Virus record (IMG/VR): IMGVR_UViG_2585427971_000007
Location: 1 to 22,176 of that record
DNA length: 22,176 nt
Source: a virus
Taxonomy: Duplodnaviria; Heunggongvirae; Uroviricota; Caudoviricetes
Direction: 5' to 3' (one strand)
A model generated the notes under the pieces. It saw nothing but the letters and a program-made list of their open reading frames with translations, was not told the origin of the DNA and ran no database searches. Below, in pieces: positions 1-20,451 of the stretch (the stretch's first letter is position 1; every line of letters starts with the position of its first letter). A program made the translations under genes and the position numbers.

Positions 1-549
1 ATGCAATTTAATATCCCTACGTTGCTTACACTGTTCCGTGTCATCCTTATCCCATTCTTTGTATTGGTCTTTTATTTGCCTGTCACCTGGTCGCCGTTTG
101 CCGCCGCGCTCATTTTCTGCGTCGCGGCGGTGACTGACTGGTTCGATGGTTTTCTGGCACGCCGCTGGAATCAGAGTACCCGGTTTGGTGCTTTCCTTGA
201 CCCTGTCGCAGATAAAGTTCTCGTGGCTATCGCCATGGTGCTGGTAACCGAGCATTACCACAGCTGGTGGGTGACCTTACCGGCAGCAACGATGATCGCC
301 CGTGAAATTATTATTTCTGCGCTACGCGAATGGATGGCGGAGTTGGGTAAACGCAGTAGCGTGGCTGTCTCCTGGATTGGAAAAGTGAAAACCACTGCCC
401 AGATGGTGGCGTTGGCATGGCTGCTGTGGCGTCCGAATATTTGGGTTGAGTACGCCGGTATTGCACTTTTCTTTGTGGCTGCGGTACTGACTCTGTGGTC
501 AATGTTGCAATATTTGAGCGCTGCGCGTGCAGATTTGCTTGATCAGTGA
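1..549 (+). CDS. pgsA: CDP-diacylglycerol--glycerol-3-phosphate 3-phosphatidyltransferase (phosphatidylglycerophosphate synthase), complete 182 aa
   Basis: 182-aa ORF starting at nt 1 with a hydrophobic multi-pass membrane profile; sequence recognised from memory as E. coli PgsA; followed by the glyW-cysT-leuZ tRNA cluster as in E. coli. Confidence 0.93.
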
Positions 550-599
550 TCGTTTCGGCGCAATTTTCAGCAAACGATCAAAAGTGGTGAAAAATATCG

Positions 600-627
600 T
601 TGACTCATCGCGCCAGGTAAGTAGAAT
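600..627 (+). promoter_or_regulatory. sigma70-type promoter for the tRNA operon (TTGACT, 16-bp spacer, TAGAAT, GC-rich discriminator)
   Basis: TTGACT at 600-605 and TAGAAT at 622-627, about 75 bp upstream of the first tRNA. Confidence 0.55.
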
Positions 628-700
628 GCAACGCATCGAACGGCGGCACTGATTGCCAGACGATAATAAAATCAAGTGATTAACTGATTGCTTGATGAAT

Positions 701-776
<76 letters not shown>

Positions 777-829
777 GTTTAAAAGGCATCGGCGTCAGCG
801 GATGTCTGGCTGAAAGGCCTGAAGAATTT

Positions 830-903
830 GGCGCGTTAACAAAGCGGTTATGTAGCGGATTGCAAATCCGTCTAGTCCGGTTCGACTCCGGAACGCGCCT
901 CCA
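830..903 (+). tRNA. cysT: tRNA-Cys (anticodon GCA)
   Basis: 74-nt sequence ggcgcgttaacaaagcggttatgtagcggattgcaaatccg...ggttcgactccggaacgcgcctcca with GCA anticodon and CCA end. Confidence 0.92.
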
Positions 904-915
904 CTTTTTTCCCGA

Positions 916-1002
916 GCCCGGATGGTGGAATCGGTAGACACAAGGGATTTAAAATCCCTCGGCGTTCGCGCTGTGCGGGTTCAAGTCCCGCTCCGGGTAC
1001 CA
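916..1002 (+). tRNA. leuZ: tRNA-Leu (anticodon TAA), long variable arm
   Basis: 87-nt sequence gcccggatggtggaatcggtagacacaagggatttaaaatccctc...gggttcaagtcccgctccgggtacca; class II tRNA with TAA anticodon. Confidence 0.92.
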
Positions 1003-1043
1003 TGGGAAAGATAAGAATAAAATCAAAGCAATAAGCAGTGTCG

Positions 1044-1070
1044 TGAAACCACCTTCGGGTGGTTTTTTTG
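1044..1070 (+). terminator. rho-independent terminator of the tRNA operon (possibly bidirectional, also downstream of int)
   Basis: GC stem aaaccacc/ggtggttt with ttcg loop followed by a run of 7 T; A-rich on the 5' side. Confidence 0.8.
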
Positions 1071-1132
1071 TATCTTCTTTCTCATTTCCGAAGATGCGTC
1101 CGAAGATGATTTTTCTCTGGACGCATCATCAT

Positions 1133-2149
1133 TCATTTTCTCTGGCCACCAACTACGGGCACTACTTTAACTTTCCGGTCATATGCTGCTGTCTGTCGCG
1201 GGTTCTTATGCCCGGAAATTGCTTGCTTCTCTTCCAGGCTGCCTTCCAGATCAGAGATACCTTTTGCTTTCAGATCATGAAATGTGAAGTCTATTTGCAG
1301 ATGAGGATATTTTTCCTGTGCTGCCGCTTTGACATCACGCCAACGAGAGTTAAAACCATCACGGGTATACTTGCCACCGGTAGTTTGATGAATCACAAAC
1401 AGGCTACTGATTCCCGTTTTTAATGGCAGAGAACGAGCCAGAGCTATCGCTTTCTGCAGACGAGGCGACCAGGCTTTGATTTGCTTAACGCCGGTTTTTC
1501 CCTGACGAATGTAGATCCCGGAATCGAACAGCTGGTCTTTCTGCAATGAAAGTACATCACTCTGTCTGGCCACGCATAAGTAGGCAATCTCCATTGCTAC
1601 GCGAACAACATCAGGAGACACTTCATAAACGGCCTGATATTCTTCATCCGTAATATAACGTTCGCGAGCTTTCTCTTTAAACTGTTTAACTCCCTGACAA
1701 GGATTCCTCTGAACATAACCTCGTTCATAACCCCAACGGAATACCCGGGACATAAAGCTTTTTTCCCTGTTTGCCTGAGTTCGGCTTGATAAACCGCGTT
1801 GATCCATATAGCGCCGAATATGTTCAGGTTTGATTTTATCCGGGTCGATCTTCCCGAAGACAGGCAGAACTTTTCCGGAATATTTTGTGTAGTCTTTCCG
1901 GGTTTCGACTGCCAAATCCATAAAATCAGGGGAGGTCATGAATTGTTCCGTGAGCGCCTGAAAAGTATTTCTTTCTTTTTCGTCACCGACCGCTTTTTCA
2001 TATGCCAGCCATACGGCTGATCGTGGTGCATCCAATGCGCACAGGCGTATCGCTTTGTTATCTTTATTCCTGAATTCGTAGGCCGCTTTGCCCTGGTAAA
2101 CACGAGGCGGCATCCAGTTATCTGCTGGGTTCTTTCTCTTTCCGGCCAT
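1133..2149 (-). CDS. Tyrosine recombinase, lambda-family phage integrase
   Basis: ORF with N-terminal basic arm-binding-type region (MAGKRKNPADNWMPPRVY) and C-terminal catalytic motifs (GKTGVKQ, HDLKAKG, GHKNPRQTAAYDR with the Tyr); start set at the ATG at 2149 by analogy with lambda Int; the longer ORF runs to 2179. Confidence 0.9.
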   Translation of the reverse strand: MAGKRKNPADNWMPPRVYQGKAAYEFRNKDNKAIRLCALDAPRSAVWLAYEKAVGDEKERNTFQALTEQFMTSPDFMDLAVETRKDYTKYSGKVLPVFGKIDPDKIKPEHIRRYMDQRGLSSRTQANREKSFMSRVFRWGYERGYVQRNPCQGVKQFKEKARERYITDEEYQAVYEVSPDVVRVAMEIAYLCVARQSDVLSLQKDQLFDSGIYIRQGKTGVKQIKAWSPRLQKAIALARSLPLKTGISSLFVIHQTTGGKYTRDGFNSRWRDVKAAAQEKYPHLQIDFTFHDLKAKGISDLEGSLEEKQAISGHKNPRQTAAYDRKVKVVPVVGGQRK

Positions 2150-2381
2150 TAAATATTGCTCCAAAATCAGGTTCATCATCTTTTCGCGTCGTCACCTCCT
2201 GTAAATTGCGAAATTTTATTGGGTTCATGAAATGGCCCCAGGTTGTTTTTGGGTGTCCGTCAGCCCTTTCCATGAAGAAAATTCCAGCCCGGCGAAGAGC
2301 CTCACATTGCTTTGATTTAAGTGGGCTTCCCGTCAGCTCGACCATTTCTTCTCTGGTGATTATGTCGTGATCGCTTTTCAT
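2118..2381 (-). CDS. Excisionase-like small DNA-binding protein
   Basis: 87-aa ORF immediately upstream of and overlapping the integrase start; RBS GAGGAAAGACC directly before the ATG. Confidence 0.6.
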   Translation of the reverse strand: MKSDHDIITREEMVELTGSPLKSKQCEALRRAGIFFMERADGHPKTTWGHFMNPIKFRNLQEVTTRKDDEPDFGAIFNGRKEKEPSR

Positions 2382-2541
2382 GGTCTTTCCTCATTATGTA
2401 GCTTATTGCGTCATCTGCCTTCTGGCAGGCACGGGCAATATCAGACTCGGTCAAAGTCTGTTTCCTGACGCTGGCCGACAGTCGACCAATTTTGATATCA
2501 AATGCGGAGAGCAGAGTTGCTCCCGGTTGCCATCGCAGCAT
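2317..2541 (-). CDS. Hypothetical small protein (74 aa from the ATG at 2541), C-terminus overlaps the xis start in another frame
   Basis: ATG at 2541 preceded by a GGAGG Shine-Dalgarno; basic low-complexity C-terminal tail makes the call uncertain. Confidence 0.4.
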   Translation of the reverse strand: MLRWQPGATLLSAFDIKIGRLSASVRKQTLTESDIARACQKADDAISYIMRKDHEKRSRHNHQRRNGRADGKPT

Positions 2542-2590
2542 TGTGATCCTCCGGTGTCTGGTGAATCGCAATGCTAGCGATGGTGAGTTT

Positions 2591-2773
2591 TTATTTCTGA
2601 TTAGGCGTAATCAGTTCTTGTGGGGTGAATGCCGATTTCTCCCGAGTGACCTTAATGTTTTCTGGCAGGTGTAGCCCAAGTTCGCAGCGGCTCCGTGCTT
2701 CAATAATGCCATTGGTACCATCGGCAAGTACCAGGTGAACCGCGTCACCACGCTTTAATGTGAGTTTAAGCAT
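2591..2773 (-). CDS. Hypothetical small protein (60 aa)
   Basis: Start codon overlaps the stop of the upstream 189-aa gene (ATGA overlap), suggesting translational coupling. Confidence 0.5.
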   Translation of the reverse strand: MLKLTLKRGDAVHLVLADGTNGIIEARSRCELGLHLPENIKVTREKSAFTPQELITPNQK

Positions 2774-3342
2774 TAGCGTATCCTCAGTGACCGTTCGCCG
2801 CGTTCCAGATGTGCGCCTGGTACCGGGTTTAATAACTCGGCTGGTGGTGTTTCTCCACGCGCCAGTATTTCGGCGGCAACCGCCTCCGCAGATTCAATCA
2901 CTTCTTTAATGGCTCGCTTGTTTGGTGTAATAACCGTTTCTACATCAACAAGTGACACGCCCTCATACTCATCCGGGATCTTATCTTTGCTATCGATAAT
3001 TACCCGGATAGCCCCCTGTGCATCAGTAAATGTGTTTTTTGCGGTTTTCAGTTTATCCAGGCCAGCAGCTTGCAGGCAGGTGAGCATATGCTTTCGAATT
3101 GCTTTTTCCTTGCCTTCAAAGGACGTCTTACGGGTTGCCAGGCGAGACATTTCTTCAGCGCAGGTATTGGCATTGCCCTGTAAATTACGGCAGATGACCA
3201 TCATGGCGTCCAGTTTGTCTCCCAGTTCTCCTTCCATGCCTTCAAGCGTGTCGGCGATCATCTCTGGCGTCAGTTCATCGGCGGTTTCTAACAGGTCAAT
3301 CAGACTGGCATATTCTTTTGCAATAGCGATAGCAGTGCTCAT
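2773..3342 (-). CDS. Phage early protein, Gam / Gp157-like (putative host-nuclease inhibitor); family assignment tentative
   Basis: 189-aa acidic protein with coiled-coil-like N-terminus; AGGAG RBS; start overlaps the stop of the upstream annealase gene; resemblance to Mu Gam / siphovirus Gp157 judged from memory only. Confidence 0.55.
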   Translation of the reverse strand: MSTAIAIAKEYASLIDLLETADELTPEMIADTLEGMEGELGDKLDAMMVICRNLQGNANTCAEEMSRLATRKTSFEGKEKAIRKHMLTCLQAAGLDKLKTAKNTFTDAQGAIRVIIDSKDKIPDEYEGVSLVDVETVITPNKRAIKEVIESAEAVAAEILARGETPPAELLNPVPGAHLERGERSLRIR

Positions 3343-5555
3343 GCTGTTTGCTCCTGTGCAGCGGTAAGGGCGGCGAGGCGTTCAGTTTTAATGTCGGTGA
3401 TACGGCGCAGACGTGATCCCAGATACGATGAATATTCTTTATCGCCTTTGGTTTCCGCTGCTTTCCTGTGTACATCCACTTCGCGGGCGATGAGGCCAAA
3501 TACCTTGTTTACTTCGTTGGCGGTTACCGCGGCGGCCAGCGTATTGGCAACGTTGATAAGCTTCTCATCCAGTTCCTTACGCAGACGGGTAGCATCTTCC
3601 GCATTCTCGCTGGCATTCTTGATATCAAACTCAGCTTTATTCCTCTGGCGGTATTCCGGATTGTCGTACAGGCCCATGAAAATATCGGCGCTGAATCCGA
3701 GAGGGGATAGCGCTTTCTTAACAGCATCCGTCCAGGATTTCTTCGGTGCTTCGCCGTCGCTTGTTGGTCCGTATTTAGTGTCGTAGATATAAGGTGTGCA
3801 TCCGTAAGCCTCGGACTCACCGCGTACCCCATTCAATATGTACCAGACTCTCACTTTCATGGTGTGGTGCATTTCACATAGGTACCCGCCAACACCGTCT
3901 TGAATCAGATCCCATTCTATTTTTTCACCAACCTGTTTTTTGCGAACTATTGGTGCGCCTTTATCAAAGCGCTCCTCCAGCACCTCTACCCCCCAGCCAA
4001 TACCAAATGGCCCAAATTCGCGAGTCGCTTTCATCGCTATATAAGTGCCGTTGATGGATGTGCCGCCGCCATTCTGAGAGAAAGCACTGGTGAAGCGCTC
4101 ATCGGTTTTGAATACGTTCTTCCACAATGCCAGGTTATCCGTGTCATCTGAGTCCTTTAACTCCGTTTCGATAGCTGAGATTGCATTCTGCCGCTTGTGC
4201 TCTTCGGCATGGATCCGCTCAACCAGCGCGTCAACGTTCTGCACCAGATCCTTTACCTGCTCGCTAAGTTGTTCTTGTGGAGGAGTCTCTTCTGCCAGGG
4301 TAATAGCTGCAGGTTCCCTCTGTGATACGGCGTTATTTTCAGGTACGTCATACACATGGCGAGGCGTGACAAACTGCTCACGCAACTGCTGCAAACTACG
4401 TTCTCCAGCATTTGCAGCTTCGCTTTTTTCGCCCTGATTTGAGGGTGTTTCTGACATCATCCCATCAATTGAGAATCGTCCGCCGCCGTGGTTGGTGACT
4501 TTTACATCATCCTTGGGTGCTGCTTCCTTTGGCTTCTCTTCAACAGCATTTGCATCACGCTGCCCGTTAGCTTGCAGCCAGTTGTCGATGTGACTGCGCA
4601 GGGATTGTGGGAAGTGGTACGTGTCTTTTGCGGGGGCGCTCTGAATAACACCGAATACTGATGCGCGGTCATAGGCAAGGATCTGATCCGTTGTGCGCAA
4701 GGCCATTGACCAGCGTTTAAAATCTTCCCTGTCCTGACTGATTATTTCGTCTGCCGCTTTCAGGATGCTGGGGGTGATTTTTTCCGGGGCAACAGGTAAC
4801 AGGGCGCAGGCAATTTCACGATCCAGAGTGGCGTGAGTCTGTTTGTAAGGACGTGCGGATGCTGTTTCTGGTTTTACCTCCGGCAGCATTTCATCTCGTT
4901 TACCGGGATTCTCTACCCATTTTTTTATAAATTTGGAGATAGTCCAACTGGTCGGGTTTTGTTCCTGGGTATCGCAACTTGCCAAAATTGCATGTACCAG
5001 ATTATTCAATCCAGCAATATGCATGTACTCGATGGGCTTACACGCCACCATGGCATCAAGAACGATGCGGTTAAACGCGTCAACCTCATCCTCACTGTCA
5101 GTATCACTGTTATCGAGCATCTCCAGGTATTCACGCGTCTGCACAAGCAATTCACTGTCGACTTCGTTGGCGTCGTGGCTGAACAGCAGAACGGCGGCGA
5201 ATCGTTCACGAGCCGGCAGTTTCATCAGGTCGCTAACCTGTGAGATATCTGCTGAACTGCAATCTGAATCAACAGGAGTGTTAACTACCCATTTTTCGCC
5301 ATCAAAACTGTGTTCTGTGGCAAACGTCTCATCAAACTCACCGACGCCTGGGCGCGGTTGGCCCGGGGCATCTTCCCAGATTTTAGGTTTGAAATAGTTG
5401 TCGCCGTGGTCAGGGTAGGCTTCCCACAATTTGCCGATGATGATGTTCTCGGCAACTTTTTTGTTAGGGGCGGCGATGGCGATGGCCAGCGCCGGGATCG
5501 CGCCGTTTTTGAGCGCGCCTTTTTTCGCTTCTAACAAGCCGTTAAAAATGGTCAT
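3339..5555 (-). CDS. Large early protein: N-terminal ~470 aa of unknown function fused to a C-terminal Rad52/Sak-like single-strand annealing domain
   Basis: 738-aa ORF with RBS GAGGAAAGACC; residues ~490-635 carry Rad52-family hallmarks (GGG...FGPFGIGWG ... GESEAYG ... TDAVKKALSPLGFSADIFMGLYD). Confidence 0.75.
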   Translation of the reverse strand: MTIFNGLLEAKKGALKNGAIPALAIAIAAPNKKVAENIIIGKLWEAYPDHGDNYFKPKIWEDAPGQPRPGVGEFDETFATEHSFDGEKWVVNTPVDSDCSSADISQVSDLMKLPARERFAAVLLFSHDANEVDSELLVQTREYLEMLDNSDTDSEDEVDAFNRIVLDAMVACKPIEYMHIAGLNNLVHAILASCDTQEQNPTSWTISKFIKKWVENPGKRDEMLPEVKPETASARPYKQTHATLDREIACALLPVAPEKITPSILKAADEIISQDREDFKRWSMALRTTDQILAYDRASVFGVIQSAPAKDTYHFPQSLRSHIDNWLQANGQRDANAVEEKPKEAAPKDDVKVTNHGGGRFSIDGMMSETPSNQGEKSEAANAGERSLQQLREQFVTPRHVYDVPENNAVSQREPAAITLAEETPPQEQLSEQVKDLVQNVDALVERIHAEEHKRQNAISAIETELKDSDDTDNLALWKNVFKTDERFTSAFSQNGGGTSINGTYIAMKATREFGPFGIGWGVEVLEERFDKGAPIVRKKQVGEKIEWDLIQDGVGGYLCEMHHTMKVRVWYILNGVRGESEAYGCTPYIYDTKYGPTSDGEAPKKSWTDAVKKALSPLGFSADIFMGLYDNPEYRQRNKAEFDIKNASENAEDATRLRKELDEKLINVANTLAAAVTANEVNKVFGLIAREVDVHRKAAETKGDKEYSSYLGSRLRRITDIKTERLAALTAAQEQTA

Positions 5556-5585
5556 TGGTCTTTCCTCATTACAGGTCAGTGGTTT

Positions 5586-5906
5586 TTAGTAGGGGAGCTC
5601 ATCGGTATCTGGCGTGTATTCGATGCAAAGTAACTGCTGGATTTTGTCATCGATAGCAGCAATACGCTGTTGGGCGTCGGCGACTGTTTTCTGTTTTTGT
5701 TCACGCAGTTGCTCGACCTGTAAACCGATGATGTCGATTGGCTCGGGCTGGTTAACGGTAATTTCAATTTCGCGGCTTTCCAGAAGGATGTACCTGTCTG
5801 GAAAATTTTTTGACATATCAACAGTCGCAACAAGCAGCTTTTCGTGGCTGAAAGTTGAAGTTGCATAATGAATAAAGAGTGTTACTGGGATGGTGCGCGC
5901 TTCCAT
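5586..5906 (-). CDS. Hypothetical phage early protein (106 aa)
   Basis: ATG preceded by an AAGGAG RBS; first gene of the leftward early operon. Confidence 0.6.
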   Translation of the reverse strand: MEARTIPVTLFIHYATSTFSHEKLLVATVDMSKNFPDRYILLESREIEITVNQPEPIDIIGLQVEQLREQKQKTVADAQQRIAAIDDKIQQLLCIEYTPDTDELPY

Positions 5907-6759
5907 AGCGACTCCTTGGTAATGTATACTCAGAGCCGATCAGCGAATATTGATCAGCTTCCATAGCGTCAGTGTCGTTGGTCTTTCCTCATCACAAGTT
6001 TGGTCACTTGTGATAAATCCGAATGGTTTGGTCGCCGTTCGGGGTAACTGGCCCGCCTTGTGCGGGTCTTTTGCTATCTAAAGGGTGCCGGTTACGTTTC
6101 CGGCGTCGTTATGTTTCCATTACGACCGTACAGGGCTGGTCAGGCCCGGGCTGGTCTTTCCTGTTTTGAGCTGGTCAGGCTCATGGTCAACGCTGGTCAG
6201 GCGTGGTACTTCCTCCGGTCTTTCCCTGGTGTCACGCTGCGGGTTTGGCCTCTCCTGTTGGGGACTCAGGCACAGCGATAAAACCTGGCTGTGTGAAAAA
6301 ATGGCCCATCGTGCGGACTGGGCAAAGACTAAACACAGCAAATTGATGATGGGCGCCCGGAATCGAACCGGGTAACGGGCAGGGAGTTCCCGTTAAACAC
6401 CTGTTCACCACAACCGGGAGCGCACTCCGCCATTTCAAAATTTAACGACAAAGCTCAAAGTTGAGTCGATGAAGTGCGCTCTCGTGTTGTAGCCAGGACT
6501 CTTCCCTGGTGGTCACACCGTATCGCCTTGATGGTGAATCAATCGCTCATACCTGGCTGTGGCTTGCACATTCCGGCTACCTGCTATGGAGACAACGCGT
6601 TAAGGCTCCGCTTCCATCCAGACCGCTTCGACACATGTGCCATATGCCGGTGAAGTCTTTCCCTCTGTCACCGTGTTGGCGCCGACGCGCAAAATTTGGT
6701 GCCGTCTTTCCGGCTGTCAGAACGTGTTTCTGAACAACTGCCGCTGGGTAAGCGTTGTT

Positions 6760-6870
6760 GATGAAAGTGACTTTACAATTTGTATTTGTAATGGTCAATG
6801 TGTTTTTAAAAAATAATTTGTAGTGAGGGGCAAAAAAATATTCACTGTGTAAAGGTGTTTTTGTGTTAGG
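6760..6870. promoter_or_regulatory. AT-rich putative OL/pL-type operator-promoter region downstream of the repressor gene
   Basis: Repeated TTTGTA(A/T) motifs (caatttgtatttgtaatgg, aataatttgtagtgagg) resembling those between the repressor and cro genes. Confidence 0.4.
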
Positions 6871-6995
6871 GGAAAGTTGCATGCCAGCAGCGGCTGGCCT
6901 GGAAATTTGAACTGAACTATTTTGTCTGGTTTTTGGCTTCAAGTAGTTCTTTTAGCAGTAGATCGAAGTGCTCTCTTTTTCTTTTAGCTCATTGA

Positions 6996-7328
6996 TTAAT
7001 TTATTTTTTCGCTCTCAGGCAGTCCTCTGAATAGTTGCAGTAGAGCCTGTTCTTGCGGGGTTAGTTCTTGATTGTAATTACCCGGGTGTAGTGTGGATTC
7101 ATCCAAATATTCCCCTTCATTCATGAAGAAAAAATGAACAGGGTATCCGGTCACTTTTGCTAGCTTGTCTAATTTATCTTTTCTTGGAGTTACCCCATTA
7201 CACCATGCCTGAACTGATTGAGCCGTAACCCCAATATGGCGAGCTAACTCAGATTGAGACCAGCCTAAGTCTTTTAGAATCCGTTGTAGTCGGCTAGCAA
7301 AAGCCATGTTTTTCGTTTTTGTGTTCAT
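6996..7328 (-). CDS. Phage repressor, short XRE-family helix-turn-helix protein with no peptidase domain
   Basis: HTH signature WSQSELARHIGVTAQSVQAWCNG; divergent from a Cro-like gene; start uncertain (alternatives at 7343 TTG, 7328 ATG, 7307 ATG). Confidence 0.8.
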   Translation of the reverse strand: MNTKTKNMAFASRLQRILKDLGWSQSELARHIGVTAQSVQAWCNGVTPRKDKLDKLAKVTGYPVHFFFMNEGEYLDESTLHPGNYNQELTPQEQALLQLFRGLPESEKIN

Positions 7329-7343
7329 ACCGTAAGGATACAA

Positions 7344-7426
7344 GGTTTAATTGTAGGGAGCATTGCAAATATAATTTGTAATTACAGTTATTGTTTGTAA
7401 TGATGACGCGGACACAAGGAGTCCAT
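7344..7426. promoter_or_regulatory. Divergent promoter/operator region of the immunity switch
   Basis: Intergenic region between divergent repressor and cro genes with repeated TTTGTAAT motifs (aatttgtaattacag, ttgtttgtaatgatg) and TTGCAA -35-like hexamer. Confidence 0.55.
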
Positions 7427-7657
7427 ATGGATAAACAACTGCAAGACAAAATTCTTTCCGTAATGAGTCAATCCGAGTTAGGGCGGCGATTAGGGAAAAA
7501 ACCACAAACGGTAAGCCTCTGGTTCAAAGGACGGGTTCCCGGTGAAGAGGTTTTGCGCACATCTGAAGCTCTTGAATGGCGCGTGACCCCTCATGATCTT
7601 AGACCGGATCTTTACCCAAACCCAGATGACAGCTTGCCTAAAACGGAAGCAGCTTAA
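7427..7657 (+). CDS. Cro/Apl-like HTH regulator (76 aa from the ATG at 7427)
   Basis: AAGGAG RBS 5 nt upstream of the ATG; HTH motif SQSELGRRLGKKPQTVSLWFKG; divergent from the repressor. Confidence 0.8.
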   Translation: MDKQLQDKILSVMSQSELGRRLGKKPQTVSLWFKGRVPGEEVLRTSEALEWRVTPHDLRPDLYPNPDDSLPKTEAA

Positions 7658-7715
7658 CTGTTGGTGAGCCCCAAATCTGATTAAGCGTAATCAATTTTTA
7701 GCGACAGGAGACGCT

Positions 7716-8192
7716 ATGGAAAACCAAGAGGAATTACAAAAAGAGATTTTGACCTGGGCGGCAAGGGCAGGGCAGGAACTCGTCACGATTGAAATCTGCC
7801 GGGCCTGGTTCAGTCAGGGACGCAATGATGAGTTGAGACTACATGAATTTGAGGACGCGGACGGCAACGTGGACTGGAGAGCCATCAACAACAATCGGCA
7901 GAAAATCTTTCGCTGGTTACGTGGCGAGACAACGGCGGCGCGCCGAAAAACTCAGGTGCTGGCCAGTGTGATGAAAGCCGTGCTACCCGCAGAACGGCGG
8001 GCACGTCTGGAGTCGCCGGGCGATCCCGTTTTGCTGGCAACGCTGGCGGCAAAAGAAGGGGTGGAAGCGATTAACGCTGTACATCTCCACTTCGCGCCAG
8101 AGTTAACTATTCAGGAAATTGACGAAGCAATAGCGGCGCTGGTAGCGACGCGAGGAGCAGTGATACGCACTGCGCAAGACCACCATGCATGA
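7716..8192 (+). CDS. Phage regulatory protein, CII-like / YdaT-like (tentative)
   Basis: 158-aa ORF with AGGAG RBS directly downstream of cro; functional call rests on position in the switch operon only. Confidence 0.45.
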   Translation: MENQEELQKEILTWAARAGQELVTIEICRAWFSQGRNDELRLHEFEDADGNVDWRAINNNRQKIFRWLRGETTAARRKTQVLASVMKAVLPAERRARLESPGDPVLLATLAAKEGVEAINAVHLHFAPELTIQEIDEAIAALVATRGAVIRTAQDHHA

Positions 8193-8231
8193 GCGCCTGA
8201 CCAGCGTTTAACTTATACCGAGGAAAGACCG

Positions 8232-8456
8232 ATGTTAAGACATATTGACCGCATTACCTGGCGTAACGGCTGGCACCTGAATGGACGCCCGGCACATGTT
8301 GCAGAGATCCGCCCCATATTCGATGGCCGCGTCGCAGCTGCACGTTCTGTATGGGAAAAGTACGAAGAAGAAAAAGCGAAACTGCGTGAGCAAAATCTCT
8401 CTGGCGCTGCCTATGAGGCTGGCTGTCGCGTTCTCTCAGAGGCTTTGGGCATATGA
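8232..8456 (+). CDS. Hypothetical protein (74 aa)
   Basis: ATG preceded by GAGGAAAGACC RBS; last gene of the rightward early operon before the convergent junction. Confidence 0.5.
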   Translation: MLRHIDRITWRNGWHLNGRPAHVAEIRPIFDGRVAAARSVWEKYEEEKAKLREQNLSGAAYEAGCRVLSEALGI

Positions 8457-8597
8457 ACATCCTCCCGTTACTTGATAGACCCATAGCCTTCCAGAGAAGT
8501 TTTATCCGTCTTGAAATGGTGATGCGCCGCGCGATAAATGCACTCTATCTTGTGCGATAAATGGCATCCACGCGGCGTTTCATTATTTGAAAAAGAA

Positions 8598-9170
8598 TTA
8601 CATTTCAGGTTGCGTTATGACAGTCCCAACAGGGTGATAGCGGTAGATCGTTGACAGTCCAATATCATAGATAATTGCCAGCCGCTTTCTGTCATACCCT
8701 TTCTGGAGCAATCTTGCGATCTGCTCATGCTGCTCCTTCGTCAGTTTCGGGCGACGTCCTCCAACTCTTCCTTGTGCTCGCGCAGCAGCCAGTCCTGCCA
8801 GCGTGCGCTCAACTATCAGTTCACGCTCCATTTCTGCCAGTGCACCCATCATATGAAAAAAGAACCTTCCCATCGGAGTGCTGGTATCGATTGAATCCGT
8901 CAGACTGCGAAAATTGACACCTTTTGCGCGTAGCTCTTCTGTGAGAGCAATGAGGTGTTTCATTCTTCTACCCAACCGATCCAGCTTCCAGACCACCAAT
9001 GTATCCCCTCTTTTAAGGCACTTTAAAGCGCGTTTCAGGCCTGGTCGTTCCGACTTGGTTCCGCTCATTTTGTCCTCAAAAATCTGTTCACATCCTGCGC
9101 ACATTAATGCATTGCGTTGCAAATCTGTGTTTTGGTCATTTGTTGACACACGTATGTAGCCAATCAGCAT
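8598..9170 (-). CDS. Serine DNA invertase, Pin/Gin/Hin/Cin family (190 aa)
   Basis: N-terminus MLIGYIRVSTNDQNTDLQRNAL with catalytic Ser and a C-terminal HTH; AAGGGAG RBS; lies adjacent to the invertible fibre segment; start set at the internal ATG at 9170 rather than the longer ORF to 9299. Confidence 0.92.
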   Translation of the reverse strand: MLIGYIRVSTNDQNTDLQRNALMCAGCEQIFEDKMSGTKSERPGLKRALKCLKRGDTLVVWKLDRLGRRMKHLIALTEELRAKGVNFRSLTDSIDTSTPMGRFFFHMMGALAEMERELIVERTLAGLAAARAQGRVGGRRPKLTKEQHEQIARLLQKGYDRKRLAIIYDIGLSTIYRYHPVGTVITQPEM

Positions 9171-9226
9171 TAAAAATACTCCCTTTTGAGTGGTTAAAGT
9201 ACTGAGATAATGTGGGGAGGATTTGA

Positions 9227-9252
9227 GAGATAAACGTTGGTTTGGGGGAAGG
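9227..9252. promoter_or_regulatory. Putative invertase crossover site, left (gix/hix-like)
   Basis: Junction where inverted-repeat identity begins; reverse complement reads tcccccAAACCAAcgtttatctctc, resembling Din-family sites (AAACC..GGTTT). Confidence 0.5.
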
Positions 9253-9436
9253 CTCTGCACTGCCTGTTGGTGTGCCTGTTCCATGGCCCACCGCCACACC
9301 GCCAGCAGGCTGGTTAAAGTGCGACGGGCGCGCCTTTACAAAAGAACAATATCCTGTTCTGGCCAGAGTCTACCCGACCCTCCGTCTTCCCGATTTACGC
9401 GGTGAGTTTATCCGTGGATGGGACGACGGGCGCAAG
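9237..9436. repeat. Inverted repeat, left copy (~200 bp, 3 mismatches in the first 50 bp, otherwise identical) encoding the shared part of the fibre C-terminus
   Basis: Direct comparison with the reverse complement of 10656-10852. Confidence 0.9.
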
Positions 9437-9715
9437 ATTGACGAGGGGCGTAAGTTGCTTTCATGGCAGAAAGGTACACTGGTCGGCGGTCATGACGATA
9501 ACGATTCTTCGCTTGATATCTCGTACATGAGTAACGGAAATAATATTGACTATGGCGGCGATAAGGTGTTTGCGGGGAATTACCGTAGCGATTATTTGTG
9601 GTACGTAATTCTGGGAGGAACAAACAGTCGCGCAAAAGCCGAATTAAACGGAGCATTCTTTAACATAACCCGCCCCCGCAATATCGCGTTTAACTATATC
9701 GTGAGGGCGGCGTGA
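9242..9715 (+). CDS. Alternative tail-fibre C-terminal cassette (promoterless, silent in this orientation)
   Basis: First ~62 aa identical to the corresponding part of the expressed fibre (GEGSALPVGVPVPWPTATPPAGWLKCDGRAF...), then divergent; ends with the conserved NYIVRA motif; opposite strand to the fibre. Confidence 0.8.
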   Translation: MGEGSALPVGVPVPWPTATPPAGWLKCDGRAFTKEQYPVLARVYPTLRLPDLRGEFIRGWDDGRKIDEGRKLLSWQKGTLVGGHDDNDSSLDISYMSNGNNIDYGGDKVFAGNYRSDYLWYVILGGTNSRAKAELNGAFFNITRPRNIAFNYIVRAA

Positions 9716-9721
9716 TACCGT

Positions 9722-10336
9722 TCAACTGGCAAGTGCCAGTGGCGCTTCCGGCCAGCTGATTTCAGGTGCCGTGCTGATATCCAGTGCGTTCAGCTCGTCG
9801 ATATAATCCAGCACGGCGTTCAGTTTTGCCGTTTCTTCTGGTGTCAGACTGCGACCAGCACGCAGTTTGAGGTTGATAAGATCGACTGACGCCATCGCCT
9901 GTTTCACCCGTTGCTGGCGTTGCTGTCTGGCAACCTCCAGTTCTGCGGCTCGCTGCCGTTCAGTATCGGTTACCCACGCCTCACCGTTCCAGGTATCCCA
10001 TGGCGTGGCTGGCTGTTTTGTGGTGGTGTCCGCCGGGTAATCACCCGGTTGGGTAATCAGAACAGGGTTACCGTTCTCCGTGCTGTATACCGTCTCGCCG
10101 CGGTGATCAGGCACATGCTCCCACCCGTTCAGCGTGGCAGTCCGGCAAACCACGTAACCCGAAATTGCCTCCGGCGGTGCATCGGCGCACGAATGTGCCG
10201 GAGTACCCACCCCAAGGGCGAGATACTCCACAGAGGATGAGGTGTATTCCCGGGTTTCCTCGTCATAGTGATATACAGTGATATCGCCCGCTACAGTGGC
10301 GATACCGTTTTCATCCAGAACTGCAGTGTTACTCAT
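9722..10336 (-). CDS. Tail fibre assembly protein (P2 gpG / Mu U-like)
   Basis: 204-aa ORF whose start overlaps the fibre stop (TAATG); position and composition typical of assembly chaperones. Confidence 0.8.
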   Translation of the reverse strand: MSNTAVLDENGIATVAGDITVYHYDEETREYTSSSVEYLALGVGTPAHSCADAPPEAISGYVVCRTATLNGWEHVPDHRGETVYSTENGNPVLITQPGDYPADTTTKQPATPWDTWNGEAWVTDTERQRAAELEVARQQRQQRVKQAMASVDLINLKLRAGRSLTPEETAKLNAVLDYIDELNALDISTAPEISWPEAPLALAS

Positions 10337-12345
10337 TAAACTGCCCTCACAATGTAATTAAGTGCAATGCTACGGGGTCTGACAGTGATACCCTTCGCAT
10401 ACCCGCTTCTGATAGAGGTCAGAATAGTAGCCTGCATACCATTGTCTGACATTGCCACGACAGGATCGCTGAATGTTGTCCCGTCCGGCATTTTAAAGCT
10501 GCCCTCACGAAGGTCTGTAATGGAATCTTCATTGTTGAATCCCATGCCGACTATCCCCGAGGTTCCCGTAGTGTCCTGGTTATAATAATCCAGCATTGCT
10601 GTTCTTAACAGCGTTGCCCCTTGTGCGGACAGCAACTTACGTCCTGTATCAACTTTGCGCCCGTCGTCCCATCCACGGATAAACTCACCGCGTAAATCGG
10701 GAAGACGGAGGGTCGGGTAGACTCTGGCCAGAACAGGATATTGTTCTTTTGTAAAGGCGCGCCCGTCGCACTTTAACCAGCCTGCTGGCGGTGTGGCGGT
10801 GGGCCATGGAACCGGTACACCAACAGGCAATGCAGAGCCTTCCCCCAAACCAAGGTAATTGAGGACATCTTTTATACTGCCCTTAGCGATAATAGCGCGA
10901 CCAATAGCTGTAAGGGTTGCCAGCGCTGCGCGGTCTGCTCCGGTAAAATAAGGCAACCGATCTGCTGCAGTGGCAAGTCCTGCCAGAGCAGTGAGCGTGG
11001 CATCTGCCGGTTGTTTTCCGTTTGCCAGATCGTATGCAGCCTTGACCGCTTTCGGTGTGGCGGCCAGTATTTCAGACGTGCTGTTGATAGCACTGCTCAG
11101 TTGTACGGTGCCTTTTGCCGTCAGCGAGGCAGCAGGCACTCCCGTTATCTGACTCCACGGGTGAGTGTGGCTGACGGGCGCCTTGCCGGCTGCAAGGTCG
11201 TATGCAGCCTTGACCGCCTTCGGCGTGGCAGCCTCAATTTCTGATTGACTGTCCGTGGCGCTGCTCAGTTGTACGGTGCCTTTTGCCGTCAGTGAAGCCG
11301 CAGGCACTCCCGTTATCTGACTCCACGGGTGAGTGTGGCTGGCAGGCGCCTTGCCGGCTGCCAGGTCGTATGCAGCCTTGACCGCTTTCGGTGTGGCGGC
11401 CAGTATTTCAGACGTGCTGTTGATGGCACTGCTCAGTTGTACGGTGCCTTTTGCCGTCAGCGAGGCAGCTGGCACTCCCGTTATCTGACTCCACGGGTGA
11501 GTGTGGCTGACGGGCGCCTTGCCGGCTGCAAGGTCGTATGCAGCCTTGACCGCCTTCGGCGTGGCAGCCTCAATTTCTGATTGACTGTCCGTGGCGCTGC
11601 TCAGTTGTACGGTGCCTTTTGCCGTCAGTGAAGCCGCAGGCACTCCCGTTATCTGACTCCACGGGTGAGTGTGGCTGGCAGGCGCCTTGCCGGCTGCCAG
11701 GTCGTATGCAGCCTTGACCGCTTTCGGTGTGGCGGCCAGTATTTCAGACGTGCTGTTGATGGCACTGCTCAGTTGTACGGTGCCTTTTGCCGTCAGCGAG
11801 GCAGCTGGCACTCCCGTTATCTGACTCCACGGGTGAGTGTGGCTGACGGGCGCCTTGCCGGCTGCAAGGTCGTATGCAGCCTTGACCGCCTTCGGCGTGG
11901 CAGCCTCAGTTTCTGATTGACTGTCCGTGGCGCTGCTCAGTTGTACGGTGCCTTTTGCCGTCAGTGAAGCCGCAGGCACTCCCGTTATCTGACTCCACGG
12001 GTGAGTGTGGCTGGCAGGCGCCTTGCCGGCTGCCAGGTCGTATGCAGCCTTGACCGCTTTTGGTGTGGCGGCCAGCGTTTCAGAGGTGCTGTTGGTGGCA
12101 CTGCTCAGTTGGGTGAACCCCTTAGCTGTCAGTGTCGCGTCCGGGTGGTTACGGGAACGTACGTGTTCAGCCAGTGACTGTGCGGCTTCCTCCGTTTTCT
12201 TCTTCAGCCATTTCGTCCTGTTTGCCAGTTGCCGGGGGGCTCGATTTGATATCCCGTCTGCACCACCCAGAACCGGATCTGATGTCTCCAGTTGATAGAT
12301 ATTTTCTTCCCACTTTTCTGTTTCATTCAGGTTTCCCATAATCAA
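10336..12345 (-). CDS. Tail fibre protein (P2 gpH-like), C-terminus lying in the invertible segment
   Basis: 669-aa ORF; N-terminus and the motif HPDATLTAKGFTQLSSATNSTSETLAATPKAVKA recalled from P2 gpH-type fibres; internal tandem repeats. Confidence 0.9.
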   Translation of the reverse strand: MIMGNLNETEKWEENIYQLETSDPVLGGADGISNRAPRQLANRTKWLKKKTEEAAQSLAEHVRSRNHPDATLTAKGFTQLSSATNSTSETLAATPKAVKAAYDLAAGKAPASHTHPWSQITGVPAASLTAKGTVQLSSATDSQSETEAATPKAVKAAYDLAAGKAPVSHTHPWSQITGVPAASLTAKGTVQLSSAINSTSEILAATPKAVKAAYDLAAGKAPASHTHPWSQITGVPAASLTAKGTVQLSSATDSQSEIEAATPKAVKAAYDLAAGKAPVSHTHPWSQITGVPAASLTAKGTVQLSSAINSTSEILAATPKAVKAAYDLAAGKAPASHTHPWSQITGVPAASLTAKGTVQLSSATDSQSEIEAATPKAVKAAYDLAAGKAPVSHTHPWSQITGVPAASLTAKGTVQLSSAINSTSEILAATPKAVKAAYDLANGKQPADATLTALAGLATAADRLPYFTGADRAALATLTAIGRAIIAKGSIKDVLNYLGLGEGSALPVGVPVPWPTATPPAGWLKCDGRAFTKEQYPVLARVYPTLRLPDLRGEFIRGWDDGRKVDTGRKLLSAQGATLLRTAMLDYYNQDTTGTSGIVGMGFNNEDSITDLREGSFKMPDGTTFSDPVVAMSDNGMQATILTSIRSGYAKGITVRPRSIALNYIVRAV
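10656..10852. repeat. Inverted repeat, right copy (partner of 9237-9436)
   Basis: Reverse complement matches 9237-9436. Confidence 0.9.
10841..10866. promoter_or_regulatory. Putative invertase crossover site, right (gix/hix-like)
   Basis: tcccccAAACCAAGGTaattgagga at the boundary between the constant fibre region and the inverted repeat. Confidence 0.5.
11010..12140. repeat. Tandem array inside the fibre gene: ~6.7 copies of a 168-bp (56-aa) unit in two alternating variants (336-bp super-period)
   Basis: Protein repeats ASLTAKGTVQLSSA..ATPKAVKAAYDLAAGKAP(A/V)SHTHPWSQITGVP; plus-strand shadow ORFs recur every 336 bp with identical sequence. Confidence 0.9.
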
Positions 12346-17240: not shown

Positions 17241-17491
17241 CAGCGGTACTCCTTACGTTGTTTCTGAGCCAGCAGACGCTCCAGCATTTTTTCCAGCTCA
17301 TGCAGGCTCATATTCAGGGCGCCAGTCAGTCCGGCAGGCGCTGTGGTTTCCCTGCCATTGAGGAAAAACTGAGGATTAAAGCTGACCTGGATACCACCAG
17401 ACGTTCCACCGCCGGTTGCAGCTGCACCACGGCCTGAATATCCGGCAGCCAGGATTTCAGGCGAGGGGATACGGGGAACATCCGGTGTCAT
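17240..17491 (-). CDS. Small hypothetical tail-module protein (83 aa), Gly/Ala-rich
   Basis: Start overlaps the tape-measure stop (ATGA); low-complexity composition lowers confidence. Confidence 0.45.
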   Translation of the reverse strand: MTPDVPRIPSPEILAAGYSGRGAAATGGGTSGGIQVSFNPQFFLNGRETTAPAGLTGALNMSLHELEKMLERLLAQKQRKEYR

Positions 17492-20451
17492 CTCATTTGC
17501 CAGACGTTGCCCTGGTAAAATCGATGCCCGGGTGGAGAGCGGAATAGCGGCATGGAAGACAAACTATTGATTACGGCTCCGATCGCATTTTTAGCAGACG
17601 ACATAAACCCATTGATATCGGGCAACGGCATACTGAAGCGAACACCTGAAGTGTTATCCCGTATTTCTGGCCCCTGAATGCTCACGGGCATTCTGGGGAG
17701 CAGTTCACTGGCCATTCGCTGCCCGGCCAGAGCTGCAAGCGGAGTGGTCCGCTGCAGGCCAATGGCGGCCCCCTGCGCGATATTGTCACCAAAGCCCATA
17801 AACACGCGGCTCGGCGAATGAATGCCCAGCTTTTCGCTGAACCAGCCACTGATGCTGTCACCCATTCCGGTTACACTGGATTTGAGCGACTCCCATTTGT
17901 TTTTGATACCGTTAATCAGACCGTCGACAAGATGGCCACCGAAGTCGGTGAACTTTGCCGGCAGATCAACACCAAGATATTTCAGCGCAGCTGCAAAGGC
18001 TTTATAGAGCAGACCTGCCGGCGACCAGTTAATCAGCAGCTTACCAGTTCCCGCGATACCGCCGTTAAAGGCTTCCTGAATGTCAGCCCAGCACTGTTTA
18101 AACCAGCTACTGATGCTGTCACCCATTCCGGTTACACTGGATTTGAGCGACCCCCATTTGTTTTTGATACCGTTAATCAGACCGTCGATAAGATGGCCAC
18201 CGAAGTCGGTGAACTTTGCCGGCAGAGCAACGCCGAAATATTTCAGCGCAGCCGCAAAGGCTTTATAGAGCAGGCCTGCCGGCGACCAGTTAATCAGCAA
18301 CTTACCAGTTCCCGCGATACCGCCGTTAAAGGCTTCCTGAATGTCAGCCCAGCACTGTTTAAACCAGCTACTGATGCTGTCACCCATTCCGGTTACACTG
18401 GATTTGAGCGACCCCCATTTGTTTTTGATACCGTTAATCAGACCGTCGATAAGATGGCCACCGAAGTCGGTGAACTTTGCCGGCAGAGCAACGCCGAAAT
18501 ATTTCAGCGCAGCCGCAAAGGCTTTATAGAGCAGGCCTGCCGGCGACCAGTTAATCAGCAACTTACCAATTCCCACAATGCCGCCGTTAAAGGCTTCCTG
18601 AATGTCTGCCCAGCGCTGTTTAAACCAGCCACTGACTGCCCCCCAGTTGCGGTAGATAAGGTAAGCTGCTGCCGCGACAGCGGTGATAACGAGACCGATG
18701 GGATTCATCATCAGCGCACGTCCAATCCAGAGAACAGCACGTCCGGCGAGCATAATTCCGCGAACCAGCCCCCCGGAGAGCACGCCACTCAGTGTTCTGG
18801 CTCCTTTGGCGACGGCGCTAAATCCGGTCACCAGCCAGCGGAGCTTACCGCCTTGCCCCAGTGCGAGCGACAGACGAAGCCAGTTGGCCCGAAGTAAAAC
18901 AGCATTTTTCCAGACACTTACAAAGGGGGAAATAAGGAGATTCAGCCCCAGTTTGAGACCAACAGTCGCTATCTTAATCGCAAGGAGCGCACTGATGAGC
19001 TTAAAAGCCCCACTGACAAATTGCGGGTGAGTCGCTACCCAGTGTTTTGCCCCCTGAATGAGTGGAAGCAGTTCCTGAGTCAGAGAAATAAAAGATGGAG
19101 CTAATTGATCGCCCAGCGTAATTGCCAGATCACGACTGCTGACCATAAGTGCTTTAGTGGCTTCAAGGGGAGATTTCAGCCGCTGATCATAAGCACTGGC
19201 AAGCAAATCGTTATCCGCAGCCCTGAGAGCACCGGCACGGATCTCTCGATATCTGTCCATGTTGGCCAGCATCGGGCGGATAAATGCCATGACCTGCATA
19301 TCCGCGAACATATCGCCCAGACCAAAGTTTTTCGCCAGAGCCTGAAGTGCCTCATCTCTTGCCGTATCATTCTTTATTTTCATGGCTGATTTGAAGCCGG
19401 CCAGCGCTTCGGGGCTTTTGGCATTGAGGTAACGTTCTATAACACTCAACATCCCTTCAATCGGAGAGATCCCCGCAGCTTTATAACTCGCAATAGATCC
19501 CTGCAAATCAATACCCAGATCAGCAAACTGTTTCTGAGTATCGCGGGCAAAAATTTTGGTAAGAAAGTTTTTAAAATTATTGGCTGCTTCGTCGGTGGAA
19601 CCTGCACCGATTTTTGCTATCTGGAGACTGGCCCCGATTTCAGCAACAGCCTCTTTTCCACTGGCAATACCCGCCATCATTGGGGCCAGGGACTGCATCC
19701 ACTTGACCTGATCCGGGATTTCAAATGACCCCTGGTCACCGGCATAAGCCATAATATTCTGAACGGCACCAAAATCTCTGGCCGCACCTTTCAGGGAGTT
19801 TTGCCAGACTGCGGCCACTTTTGCCCAGTCCTGAGCAGACGTGCGTGTTGCCGTTGCCGCGCGGGCAATATCCGGCATCAGAAAACCGATATCTGACACA
19901 TTATCAATATTGTCGCTGATGAGTGAACCCACCGCCTCCTGCAGCTCATCCTGATACTGATTGTATTTAAGCGCCCAGCCTTTTATCTGTCCGGCAAGTG
20001 CATCCCGCGTTTTATTGTCATATTTTGCGGTGATCGACATATCAATCATTTTGTCCTGAAAAGACATGGACTGCTGAACGGCAGGGGAAACCGTATGATA
20101 AACAGTCTGTGCCATGCCATACGCTTCAATCCCCTGACCATACAGCGCCATGCGGTTAGCTTTCAGCGCATCACTGGTAGCGGATGCCGCTGACAGACGG
20201 CGCTGCTGGCGCTCAATTTGCTCCATGGTGCGGCTTACCCGCAGCAGCTCGCTGTTGAGATGCTGCATCCGGGAAGAACCCAGTTGACCATAACGTTCTG
20301 TTGCACGGGTTAAAGCGTTCTGACGTTCCTGCAGGCGGCGTGAGGTATCGCTCAGGGAATCAAGCGCACGGCGGGTACCGCTCATTGCAGAACGGAATGT
20401 GCTACCAATCATCCCGCCGATAACAACGCCGACTGAAAACTGTCCCGACAT
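17488..20451 (-). CDS. Tail tape measure protein
   Basis: 987-aa ORF with GGAGG RBS, coiled-coil-rich N-terminus, hydrophobic central segments, internal tandem repeats; position after the chaperone pair. Confidence 0.9.
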   Translation of the reverse strand: MSGQFSVGVVIGGMIGSTFRSAMSGTRRALDSLSDTSRRLQERQNALTRATERYGQLGSSRMQHLNSELLRVSRTMEQIERQQRRLSAASATSDALKANRMALYGQGIEAYGMAQTVYHTVSPAVQQSMSFQDKMIDMSITAKYDNKTRDALAGQIKGWALKYNQYQDELQEAVGSLISDNIDNVSDIGFLMPDIARAATATRTSAQDWAKVAAVWQNSLKGAARDFGAVQNIMAYAGDQGSFEIPDQVKWMQSLAPMMAGIASGKEAVAEIGASLQIAKIGAGSTDEAANNFKNFLTKIFARDTQKQFADLGIDLQGSIASYKAAGISPIEGMLSVIERYLNAKSPEALAGFKSAMKIKNDTARDEALQALAKNFGLGDMFADMQVMAFIRPMLANMDRYREIRAGALRAADNDLLASAYDQRLKSPLEATKALMVSSRDLAITLGDQLAPSFISLTQELLPLIQGAKHWVATHPQFVSGAFKLISALLAIKIATVGLKLGLNLLISPFVSVWKNAVLLRANWLRLSLALGQGGKLRWLVTGFSAVAKGARTLSGVLSGGLVRGIMLAGRAVLWIGRALMMNPIGLVITAVAAAAYLIYRNWGAVSGWFKQRWADIQEAFNGGIVGIGKLLINWSPAGLLYKAFAAALKYFGVALPAKFTDFGGHLIDGLINGIKNKWGSLKSSVTGMGDSISSWFKQCWADIQEAFNGGIAGTGKLLINWSPAGLLYKAFAAALKYFGVALPAKFTDFGGHLIDGLINGIKNKWGSLKSSVTGMGDSISSWFKQCWADIQEAFNGGIAGTGKLLINWSPAGLLYKAFAAALKYLGVDLPAKFTDFGGHLVDGLINGIKNKWESLKSSVTGMGDSISGWFSEKLGIHSPSRVFMGFGDNIAQGAAIGLQRTTPLAALAGQRMASELLPRMPVSIQGPEIRDNTSGVRFSMPLPDINGFMSSAKNAIGAVINSLSSMPLFRSPPGHRFYQGNVWQMR
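17840..18640. repeat. Tandem array inside the tape-measure gene: ~3 copies of a 261-bp (87-aa) unit
   Basis: Protein repeats WFKQCWADIQEAFNGGIAGTGKLLINWSPAGLLYKAFAAALKYFGVALPAKFTDFGGHLIDGLINGIKNKWGSLKSSVTGMGDSIS; plus-strand shadow ORFs recur every 261 bp. Confidence 0.9.

Follow-up and report, generated by a model that had tools for sequence, protein, structure and literature searches.

Exchange of tail-fiber parts by DNA inversion through Din-family invertases has long been textbook knowledge and was established in Mu, P1, e14, and p15B. The established members of this family (Hin, Gin, Cin, Pin, and Min) share more than 60% mutual sequence identity. Din-type inversion is catalyzed by the enzyme and requires supercoiled DNA and Fis, and Din systems possess a recombinational enhancer that depends on Fis, acts in cis, and is located in the 5' portion of the invertase gene. 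A P2-like prophage of EPEC E2348/69 contains a three-site tail-fiber "shufflon," for which PCR and sequencing revealed that four variants coexist in clonal cultures; a simpler two-variant version was also mentioned (Goldberg et al. 2014, PMC4272514). The published Din crossover sites are compiled in Table 3 of PMC3241671.

The 22,176-nt stretch of DNA analyzed here, referred to as the window, contains a module that is very probably a site-specific inversion switch of the Din family (Gin/Cin/Pin/Min type) for phage host range. The features of this module are listed in Table 1. In the proposed mechanism, the invertase would bind the two inverted 26-bp sites and cut at their identical AA/TT cores, upon which the intervening 1,615 bp would invert. 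Since the right site is located inside the fiber gene, just before the collar domain, the inversion would remove the last approximately 172 codons (tip A, followed by the chaperone gene) and put the 157 tip-B codons in their place. The particles released by a lysogen population would then carry one or the other receptor-binding tip, and tips A and B probably bind different receptors.

Table 1. Features of the inversion module and its surroundings, in window coordinates
Feature	Position	Strand	Details
Transposable prophage terminus carrying the switch	8519-8597		Starts with 5'-TG; two CGATAAATG repeats
Din-family serine DNA invertase gene	8598-9170	minus	190 aa; Pfam Resolvase and HTH_7; similarity to Pin/Gin/Cin
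Candidate recombinational (Fis) enhancer	9081-9152	minus	Codons 7-30 of the invertase gene; assigned by homology only
Left crossover site	9225-9250	minus	TTCCCCCAAACC-AA-CGTTTATCTCTC; core 9237-9238
Left inverted-repeat arm	9234-9462		229 nt, 95%; codes for the collar domain with which tip B starts
Tip B, silent alternative fiber tip	9242-9715	plus	157 aa; Collar domain
Tail-fiber assembly (chaperone) gene tfa	9722-10336	minus	Pfam Caudo_TAP, E=3.5e-28
Tip A, currently expressed	10336-10852	minus	Invertible 3' part of the fiber gene, about 172 aa
Right inverted-repeat arm	10628-10856		229 nt, 95%
Right crossover site	10840-10865	plus	TTCCCCCAAACC-AA-GGTAATTGAGGA; core 10852-10853
Constant N-terminal tail-fiber part	10853-12345	minus	56-aa tandem shaft repeats

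The invertase, with its matches to the Pfam families Resolvase (E=8e-51) and HTH_7 (E=1e-12), has the size and domain arrangement of the Din family, namely, approximately 190 aa with an N-terminal catalytic serine domain and a C-terminal helix-turn-helix. In protein alignments it shared 76% identity with PinE, the closest named invertase among those compared, 73% with Gin, and 72% with Cin, and these values are above the 60% level of established Din members. The YxRVSTNDQ motif with Ser9 and the active-site region are invariant between this protein and Pin, Gin, and Cin. The invertase was found on at least 1,000 contigs and is named "Pin-like" in the sources; we infer that it is the catalyst of the inversion. 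Within its gene, the segment corresponding to the candidate enhancer aligns with the enhancer annotated at nt 19 to 90 of P1 cin. Identity in this segment is 75 to 79%, compared to 63 to 68% in the remainder of the gene, and synonymous codons are invariant at 6 of 19 positions, as against 10 of 90 elsewhere, which is a weak signal (p=0.03). By sequence homology, inversion in the window may require a Fis-bound enhancer in the 5' coding region of the invertase gene.

The Din-type half-site pattern was detected at only two places in the window, compared to 0.02 expected by chance. In the e14, Mu, and P1 control loci, this pattern likewise retrieved the pix, gix, and cix sites that are published or annotated there. 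Both sites are inverted with respect to each other, are located at the segment boundaries, follow the 26-bp arrangement TTC....AAACC-NA-GGTTT....GAA, and have the identical 2-bp core (AA/TT) that is characteristic of Din systems. Their outer halves are imperfect and deviate from the palindromic Din consensus, above all GGTAATTGAGGA on the right. The p15B mix sites have the same inner half, TTCCCCCAAACC, and the same AA core (Table 3 of PMC3241671). The left outer half-site resembles pixR (CGTTTAT...), whereas the right one resembles mixQ''R' (GGTAAT...), with matches at 9 of 12 positions. Judged by sequence, the window sites are closest to mix of p15B and pix of e14.

The arms of the inverted repeat are 95% complementary and 1,165 nt apart. 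Their identity starts at positions 9237 (left arm) and 10853 (right arm), which correspond to the central dinucleotides of the two 26-bp sites, so that the invertible segment covers positions 9238 to 10852. The peptide common to both arms starts with GEGSALPVG, and its first 65 residues, a Phage Tail Collar domain, are identical; the frames then diverge. The existence of the 229-bp repeats is thus explained by the fact that both tips start with the same collar domain. The initial annotation had described a segment of approximately 1.6 kb between inverted repeats that encode the same stretch of approximately 62 aa, crossover sites where identity begins, and a fiber running into either of two C-terminal domains on opposite strands, all of which agree with the measurements given here. 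The repeats, proposed to be approximately 200 bp long, are real but slightly longer. The serine invertase gene does adjoin the segment as had been noted; with 67 bp between its ATG and the left crossover core, it is located just outside the interval of that annotation.

The constant part of the fiber gene contains seven copies of Phage_fiber_2, encoded by 168-nt tandem repeats, and its likely start codon is the ATG at 12339, which is the RefSeq start in relatives. In the present orientation, the full fiber comprises 669 aa on the minus strand. Tip B, in the window orientation, has neither a promoter nor a fiber N-terminus; it is homologous to the tip of T4 gp37, including the C-terminal NIAFNYIVRAA motif. 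There is a single tfa gene in the invertible segment, directly downstream of tip A, rather than one per tip. Since only 6 bp separate the stop of tip B (9715) from that of tfa (9722), a second one would not fit. Inversion in silico resulted in an open, in-frame fiber of 656 aa that carries tip B in place of the 669-aa fiber.

Both orientations were found in nature. (i) Strain Iso00225 corresponds to the window with positions 9237 to 10856 inverted; it has an intact, annotated 654-aa fiber with tip B, and its tip A and tfa face the opposite way. Among genomes with at least 99% identity, the two-cassette form is found in both orientations. (ii) A synthetic flipped left junction matched at least 18 complete E. 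coli genomes with 100% identity over 701 nt, which limits the crossover to positions 9237 to 9259. (iii) The strains p11A and p11B are clonal serial blood isolates from one patient. Exact inversion of the p11A sequence at the two cores yielded that of p11B without a single difference in 8,701 nt. The arms do not differ from each other until 22 bp from the core, and the exchange falls within those 22 bp. The invertase of these isolates (WP_000904922.1 in p11A) is 100% identical to that of the window, and the outer sites are identical as well. (iv) Close relatives have three or four sites, compared to two in the window. Where relatives have a third site together with a third tip, all four predicted isomers are present, with exchanges again at the site cores; the third site (…CGTTTTTATGCG) differs from mixN''O' at one base in 26. 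The window corresponds to a three-site isomer from which the third cassette (514 bp) is missing. As in other Din systems, both orientations thus exist with breakpoints at the sites. The initial annotation had predicted that inversion exchanges the fiber tip, in line with the in-frame product obtained in silico and the tip-B fiber of Iso00225. It had also proposed a comparison of the junction 26-mers with gix, hix, cix, and pix and a search for both orientations in related genomes: the 26-mers match published Din sites (PMC3241671), and both orientations were retrieved (Iso00225, p11A/p11B, and at least 18 genomes), so that neither of the observations it had named as refuting the switch applies. 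As to their origin, the genomes with the flipped junction may descend from a single ancestral inversion.

Inversion of the segment could alternatively result from RecA-dependent homologous recombination between the 229-bp repeats, with the invertase being irrelevant or inactive. A repeat of 229 bp at 95% identity is a sufficient substrate for this process, and arms in some relatives are mosaic: Iso00225 differs from a simple flip at offsets 22 to 39 and 79 to 102 of one arm, a pattern indicative of gene conversion or homologous exchange. In some relatives, the arms thus appear to recombine by homology as well. However, exchange within 22 bp of the core, as seen in p11A/p11B and the at least 18 genomes, corresponds to the outermost tenth of the arm, and the arms start exactly at the center of Din-type sites. 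Furthermore, the invertase gene has an uninterrupted ORF with 100% conservation in hundreds of genomes, and the three-site relatives recombine at the cores. We consider it very improbable that RecA accounts for the inversion.

Marginally less probable still is that the switch is a fossil, i.e., that its parts were inherited and that the segment does not flip in the window genome, for example, due to a defective prophage or an unexpressed invertase. A scan of positions 8400 to 10900 identified no sigma-70-like promoter upstream of the invertase gene or for tfa, and the third cassette was lost from the window copy, both of which would fit such an inactive state. Against it stand the identity of the invertase and both sites to the copy that inverted between serial isolates of one patient and the occurrence of both two-cassette orientations among nearly identical genomes. 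Misassembly, RecA-dependent inversion, and a fossil switch were all rejected on the basis of the core-precise exchange and the zero other differences between clonal isolates. We therefore favor the Din-type switch, and the behavior of identical parts elsewhere suggests that flipping is ongoing in the window itself.

A Mu/BcepMu-like transposable prophage carries the switch module at its end. The prophage boundary abuts six different flanks, and the p11A prophage encodes a DDE transposase, a MuB-like protein, Gam, and Mor and has TG...CA ends as well as a TTAGGA target duplication. The junction at positions 5500 to 9300 of the window was absent from 5,426 complete E. coli genomes since a transposable prophage inserts at random. 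An identical switch module is present on P1/p15B-like phage-plasmids. Escherichia phage 503046 (23 kb) was considered as the window element and discarded, as only 8520-13821 matches.

Comparison with the known systems revealed that the EPEC E2348/69 shufflon has the same layout as the window (fiber, tip cassettes, one tfa, and invertase) and the same type of site; its invertase is 85% identical to that of the window, and its four-variant logic is that of the three-site relatives. The two differ in that DNA identity is approximately 74% and Tfa identity approximately 59% and in that the window lacks the third cassette. The switch of the EPEC "Mu" prophage was also considered as the same module and turned out to be an e14-like segment with two chaperones. 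In Min of p15B, as in the window, short promoterless fiber-tip cassettes are swapped onto a constant fiber N-terminus; the likeness to Min was judged by site sequences alone. Min of p15B has six sites and is located on an IncY phage-plasmid, whereas two sites and two tips are present in the window, on a transposable prophage. The window thus differs from Min-type systems, which are defined by at least three crossover sites and overlapping invertible segments. The Pin/P segment of e14 also exchanges the fiber C-terminus, but there each of the two tips has a chaperone gene of its own (tfaP and tfaE), compared to one such gene in the window. The Mu G and P1 C segments share with the window the mechanism and the gene order, namely, fiber, chaperone, inverted tip, and, terminally in a transposable phage, the invertase. 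In Mu, the distance between site and invertase ATG is the same (67 bp), and in P1, as in the window, long repeats are found inside the sites. However, the segments of Mu and P1 contain two divergent tip and chaperone pairs (S-U and S'-U'), whereas the window has one tfa only. In addition, gix has a GA core instead of AA, the window is P2/T4-gp37-like rather than Mu-like in its tips and tail genes, and there is no com/mom after the invertase.

Tip A is the only tip cotranscribed with tfa, and in the flipped state tfa faces away from the late operon, as it does in 3 of the 4 isomers of the three-site relatives. Because of this exclusive cotranscription, and because no promoter-like site for tfa in the flipped state was found, the tip-B fiber may assemble differently or poorly. 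It is conceivable, though rather unlikely, that one chaperone gene serves several tips or is dispensable for some, and that the switch toggles between tips that use the chaperone and tips that do without it, or between a fiber that functions and one that assembles poorly, rather than simply between two equivalent host ranges.

The window switch is an ordinary example of the known tail-fiber inversion, and its discovery value is small given that a homologous prophage switch has already been demonstrated in EPEC. The data nevertheless have consequences for how this region is read. The 157-aa "phage tail protein" should be annotated as an alternative 3' end of the fiber gene, and differences in this region between close E. 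coli genomes, including the ST131 serial isolates, are programmed inversions and not mutations or misassemblies. Host-range predictions for this prophage family need to consider two to four tips per genome.

Between positions 7000 and 13000, the repeat finder detected a single long inverted repeat, the arms of which (9234-9462 and 10628-10856) are 229 nt long and 95% complementary; the flanking repeats of the initial annotation are thus real, but longer than the roughly 200 bp reported there. Both arms encode the same 65 residues (initially put at ~62), beyond which the tip proteins diverge. Tip A (10336-10852), the present end of the fibre, lies on the minus strand and tip B, its silent alternative, on the plus strand, so that two different C-termini on opposite strands are indeed present. 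Both tips meet again at the C-terminal motif RPRNIAFNYIVRA, which, like the collar domain, also occurs in the receptor-binding tip of T4 gp37. Baseplate genes I and J, both of P2 type, lie upstream of the fibre gene. The fibre shaft (11015-12154) is a tandem array of six to seven units, each of 168 nt (56 aa), corresponding to the Phage_fiber_2 repeats; since alternate units are 98% and 85% identical, the real period is 336 nt, and fibre length differs from relative to relative. The tape-measure gene (17488-20451) also contains internal repeats, of ~261 nt (at about 17840-18653), and has another length or is broken into pseudogenes in close relatives.

Features of the switch and of the adjoining end of its carrier
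Feature	Position	Strand	Description
Element end	8519-8597		5'-TG, then two CGATAAATG repeats
Invertase gene	8598-9170	-	190 aa from MLIGY... start; Resolvase E=8e-51, resolvase HTH E=1e-12
Left site	26-mer centred on onset of identity	minus-strand reading	TTCCCCCAAACC-AA-CGTTTATCTCTC
Tip B ORF	9242-9715	+	157 aa; starts within left arm; Collar domain at its N-terminus
Tail-fibre assembly gene (tfa)	9722-10336	-	204 aa, Caudo_TAP; directly after fibre gene
Fibre gene	10336-12345	-	669 aa; seven Phage_fiber_2 repeats and Phage Tail Collar domain
Right site	26-mer centred on onset of identity		TTCCCCCAAACC-AA-GGTAATTGAGGA

Junction-to-junction alignment placed the onset of identity at 9237 (left) and 10853 (right), and the 26-mers at these junctions were compared with a published table of Din-family sites (PMC3241671). 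The inner half-site TTCCCCCAAACC is identical to that of several p15B mix sites, the core is the usual AA, and the outer half-sites resemble pixR (CGTTTATGAAAA) and mixQ''R' (GGTAATCAAGAA), which upholds the proposal of Din-like crossover sites where identity begins. A pattern derived from the conserved part of the sites matched the window twice, at these two sites only, versus 0.02 matches expected, and in the control loci e14, Mu, and P1, a slightly broader pattern picked out the pix, gix, and cix sites that are published or annotated, and no others. The Resolvase and HTH matches bear out a serine invertase beside the segment, although its gene lies just outside the interval (9170-10870) first assigned to the switch. 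The protein is 76, 73, and 72% identical to PinE, Gin, and Cin, respectively, with an invariant active-site region, and 100% identical to WP_000904922.1, a protein that occurs on at least 1000 contigs and that some sources already name "Pin-like". The homologue of the enhancer annotated within P1 cin corresponds to nt 19-90 of the gene (window 9081-9152). This stretch is 75-79% conserved, versus 63-68% in the remainder of the gene, and its synonymous codons are invariant modestly more often (6 of 19, versus 10 of 90 elsewhere; p=0.03), which is consistent with a candidate enhancer but short of proof.

Inversion of 9238-10852 in silico yielded an open 656-aa fibre ending in tip B, as expected if inversion exchanges the fibre tip. 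At least 18 complete E. coli genomes contain a 100% identical match to a synthetic "flipped" left junction of 701 nt; this junction was covered to at least 80% in 299 genomes, versus 102 for the window-type junction, both counts including relatives with three sites. E. coli Iso00225 and the window are co-linear apart from 9237-10856, which is inverted in the strain; its fibre is intact in the RefSeq annotation, and tip A and tfa point away. The strongest evidence for flipping is provided by a pair of clonal ST131 bacteraemia isolates, p11A and p11B, taken serially from one patient (10.1101/616961), in which the invertase and both outer sites are the same as in the window: p11A inverted precisely at the two cores equals p11B, with 0 differences over 8,701 nt. 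As the first arm-to-arm difference lies 22 bp from the core, exchange occurred within that outermost interval, which argues for site-specific and against general homologous recombination. Homologous arm-to-arm exchange occurs too, judging by the mosaic arms of some genomes. Taken together, these data confirm the initial observation and support its interpretation as a tip-swapping switch.

In many genomes, the switch has three sites and a third tip, C; the additional, internal site reads TTCCCCCAAACCAACGTTTTTATGCG and differs from mixN''O' by one base. Three sites predict four isomers, all of which were found in complete genomes (p11A, p11B, AVS0575, and O25:H4 strain 18044). The window equals the AVS0575 isomer minus a 514-bp C cassette, lost between the cores of two directly repeated sites, with only five other differences over 9 kb; either site-specific deletion or homologous recombination between arms may account for this loss. 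The lost cassette occupies 10855-11368 of comparison locus L004, corresponding to window position 10853.

The tail-plus-invertase block stops at 8519, 79 bp past the invertase stop codon. The boundary falls at the same base against six unrelated flanks, namely, those in the window, irp2, ydiV, an unannotated phage record, a P1-like plasmid, and cysM (the last taken from annotation), and the comparison loci with this element end are L001, L003, L004, L008, L010, and L012. The complete p11A prophage encodes a DDE (rve-type) transposase, a MuB-like ATPase, Gam, and Mor, and has TG...CA termini and a TTAGGA target duplication. These genes, ends, and duplication identify the carrier, by sequence, as a Mu/BcepMu-like transposable prophage whose tail is P2-like. 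In its published description, BcepMu lacks an invertible region (PMC2628397). In two strains (L003 and L004, 3051-8519), the transposable prophage adjoins a truncated irp2, the high-pathogenicity island gene for yersiniabactin synthetase, and this insertion probably inactivates yersiniabactin synthesis. Plasmid pKY1497_2 (L008), a 93-kb P1-like phage-plasmid, carries a switch at 4889-8180 with the same invertase (WP_000904922.1) and tfa accessions as the window, tip cassettes, and four sites; the 79-bp Mu-type end is kept, next to the initial 35 nt of a cin-like gene. It thus seems that the entire switch passed from the transposable phage to the P1 lineage in place of cin and the C segment.

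The left 8.5 kb of the window (positions 1-8518) hold a second, tRNA-integrated prophage with an integrase (1133-2179) and an early region of the cI/cro/YdaS/YdaT type; next to it are pgsA and three tRNA genes (701-999). The transposable prophage is inserted in this early region and severs the rightward early operon at 8518; the junction of the two prophages was found in none of 5,426 complete E. coli genomes searched. A 738-aa ORF of the resident prophage (3339-5555) had no Pfam match, and the ~1.1 kb that follow (5870-6990) contained no convincing ORF and no Rfam match.

The earlier description is correct with three adjustments: the repeat length and the position of the invertase gene, given above, and the presence of only one chaperone gene in the segment. 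Whereas Mu, P1, and e14 have a chaperone for each tip, tfa lies behind tip A only. Once the segment is inverted, tfa is antisense to the late operon, and a scan of 8400-10900 for sigma-70-like promoters found none to drive it in that state. Tips B and C may or may not need this chaperone, which is the only point of mechanistic interest in the switch. The P2-like prophage of EPEC E2348/69 was described as having [quoted passage not shown] (PMC4272514, Goldberg et al. 2014); PCR and sequencing revealed that all variants coexist in clonal cultures, and a simpler two-variant switch was described in another prophage (PMC4272514). The E2348/69 locus resembles the window in its equal layout, single tfa, and matching site type, with an 85% identical invertase, and one of its sites is identical to mixQ''R'. 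Given this precedent, the switch is an ordinary member of a known, experimentally established kind.
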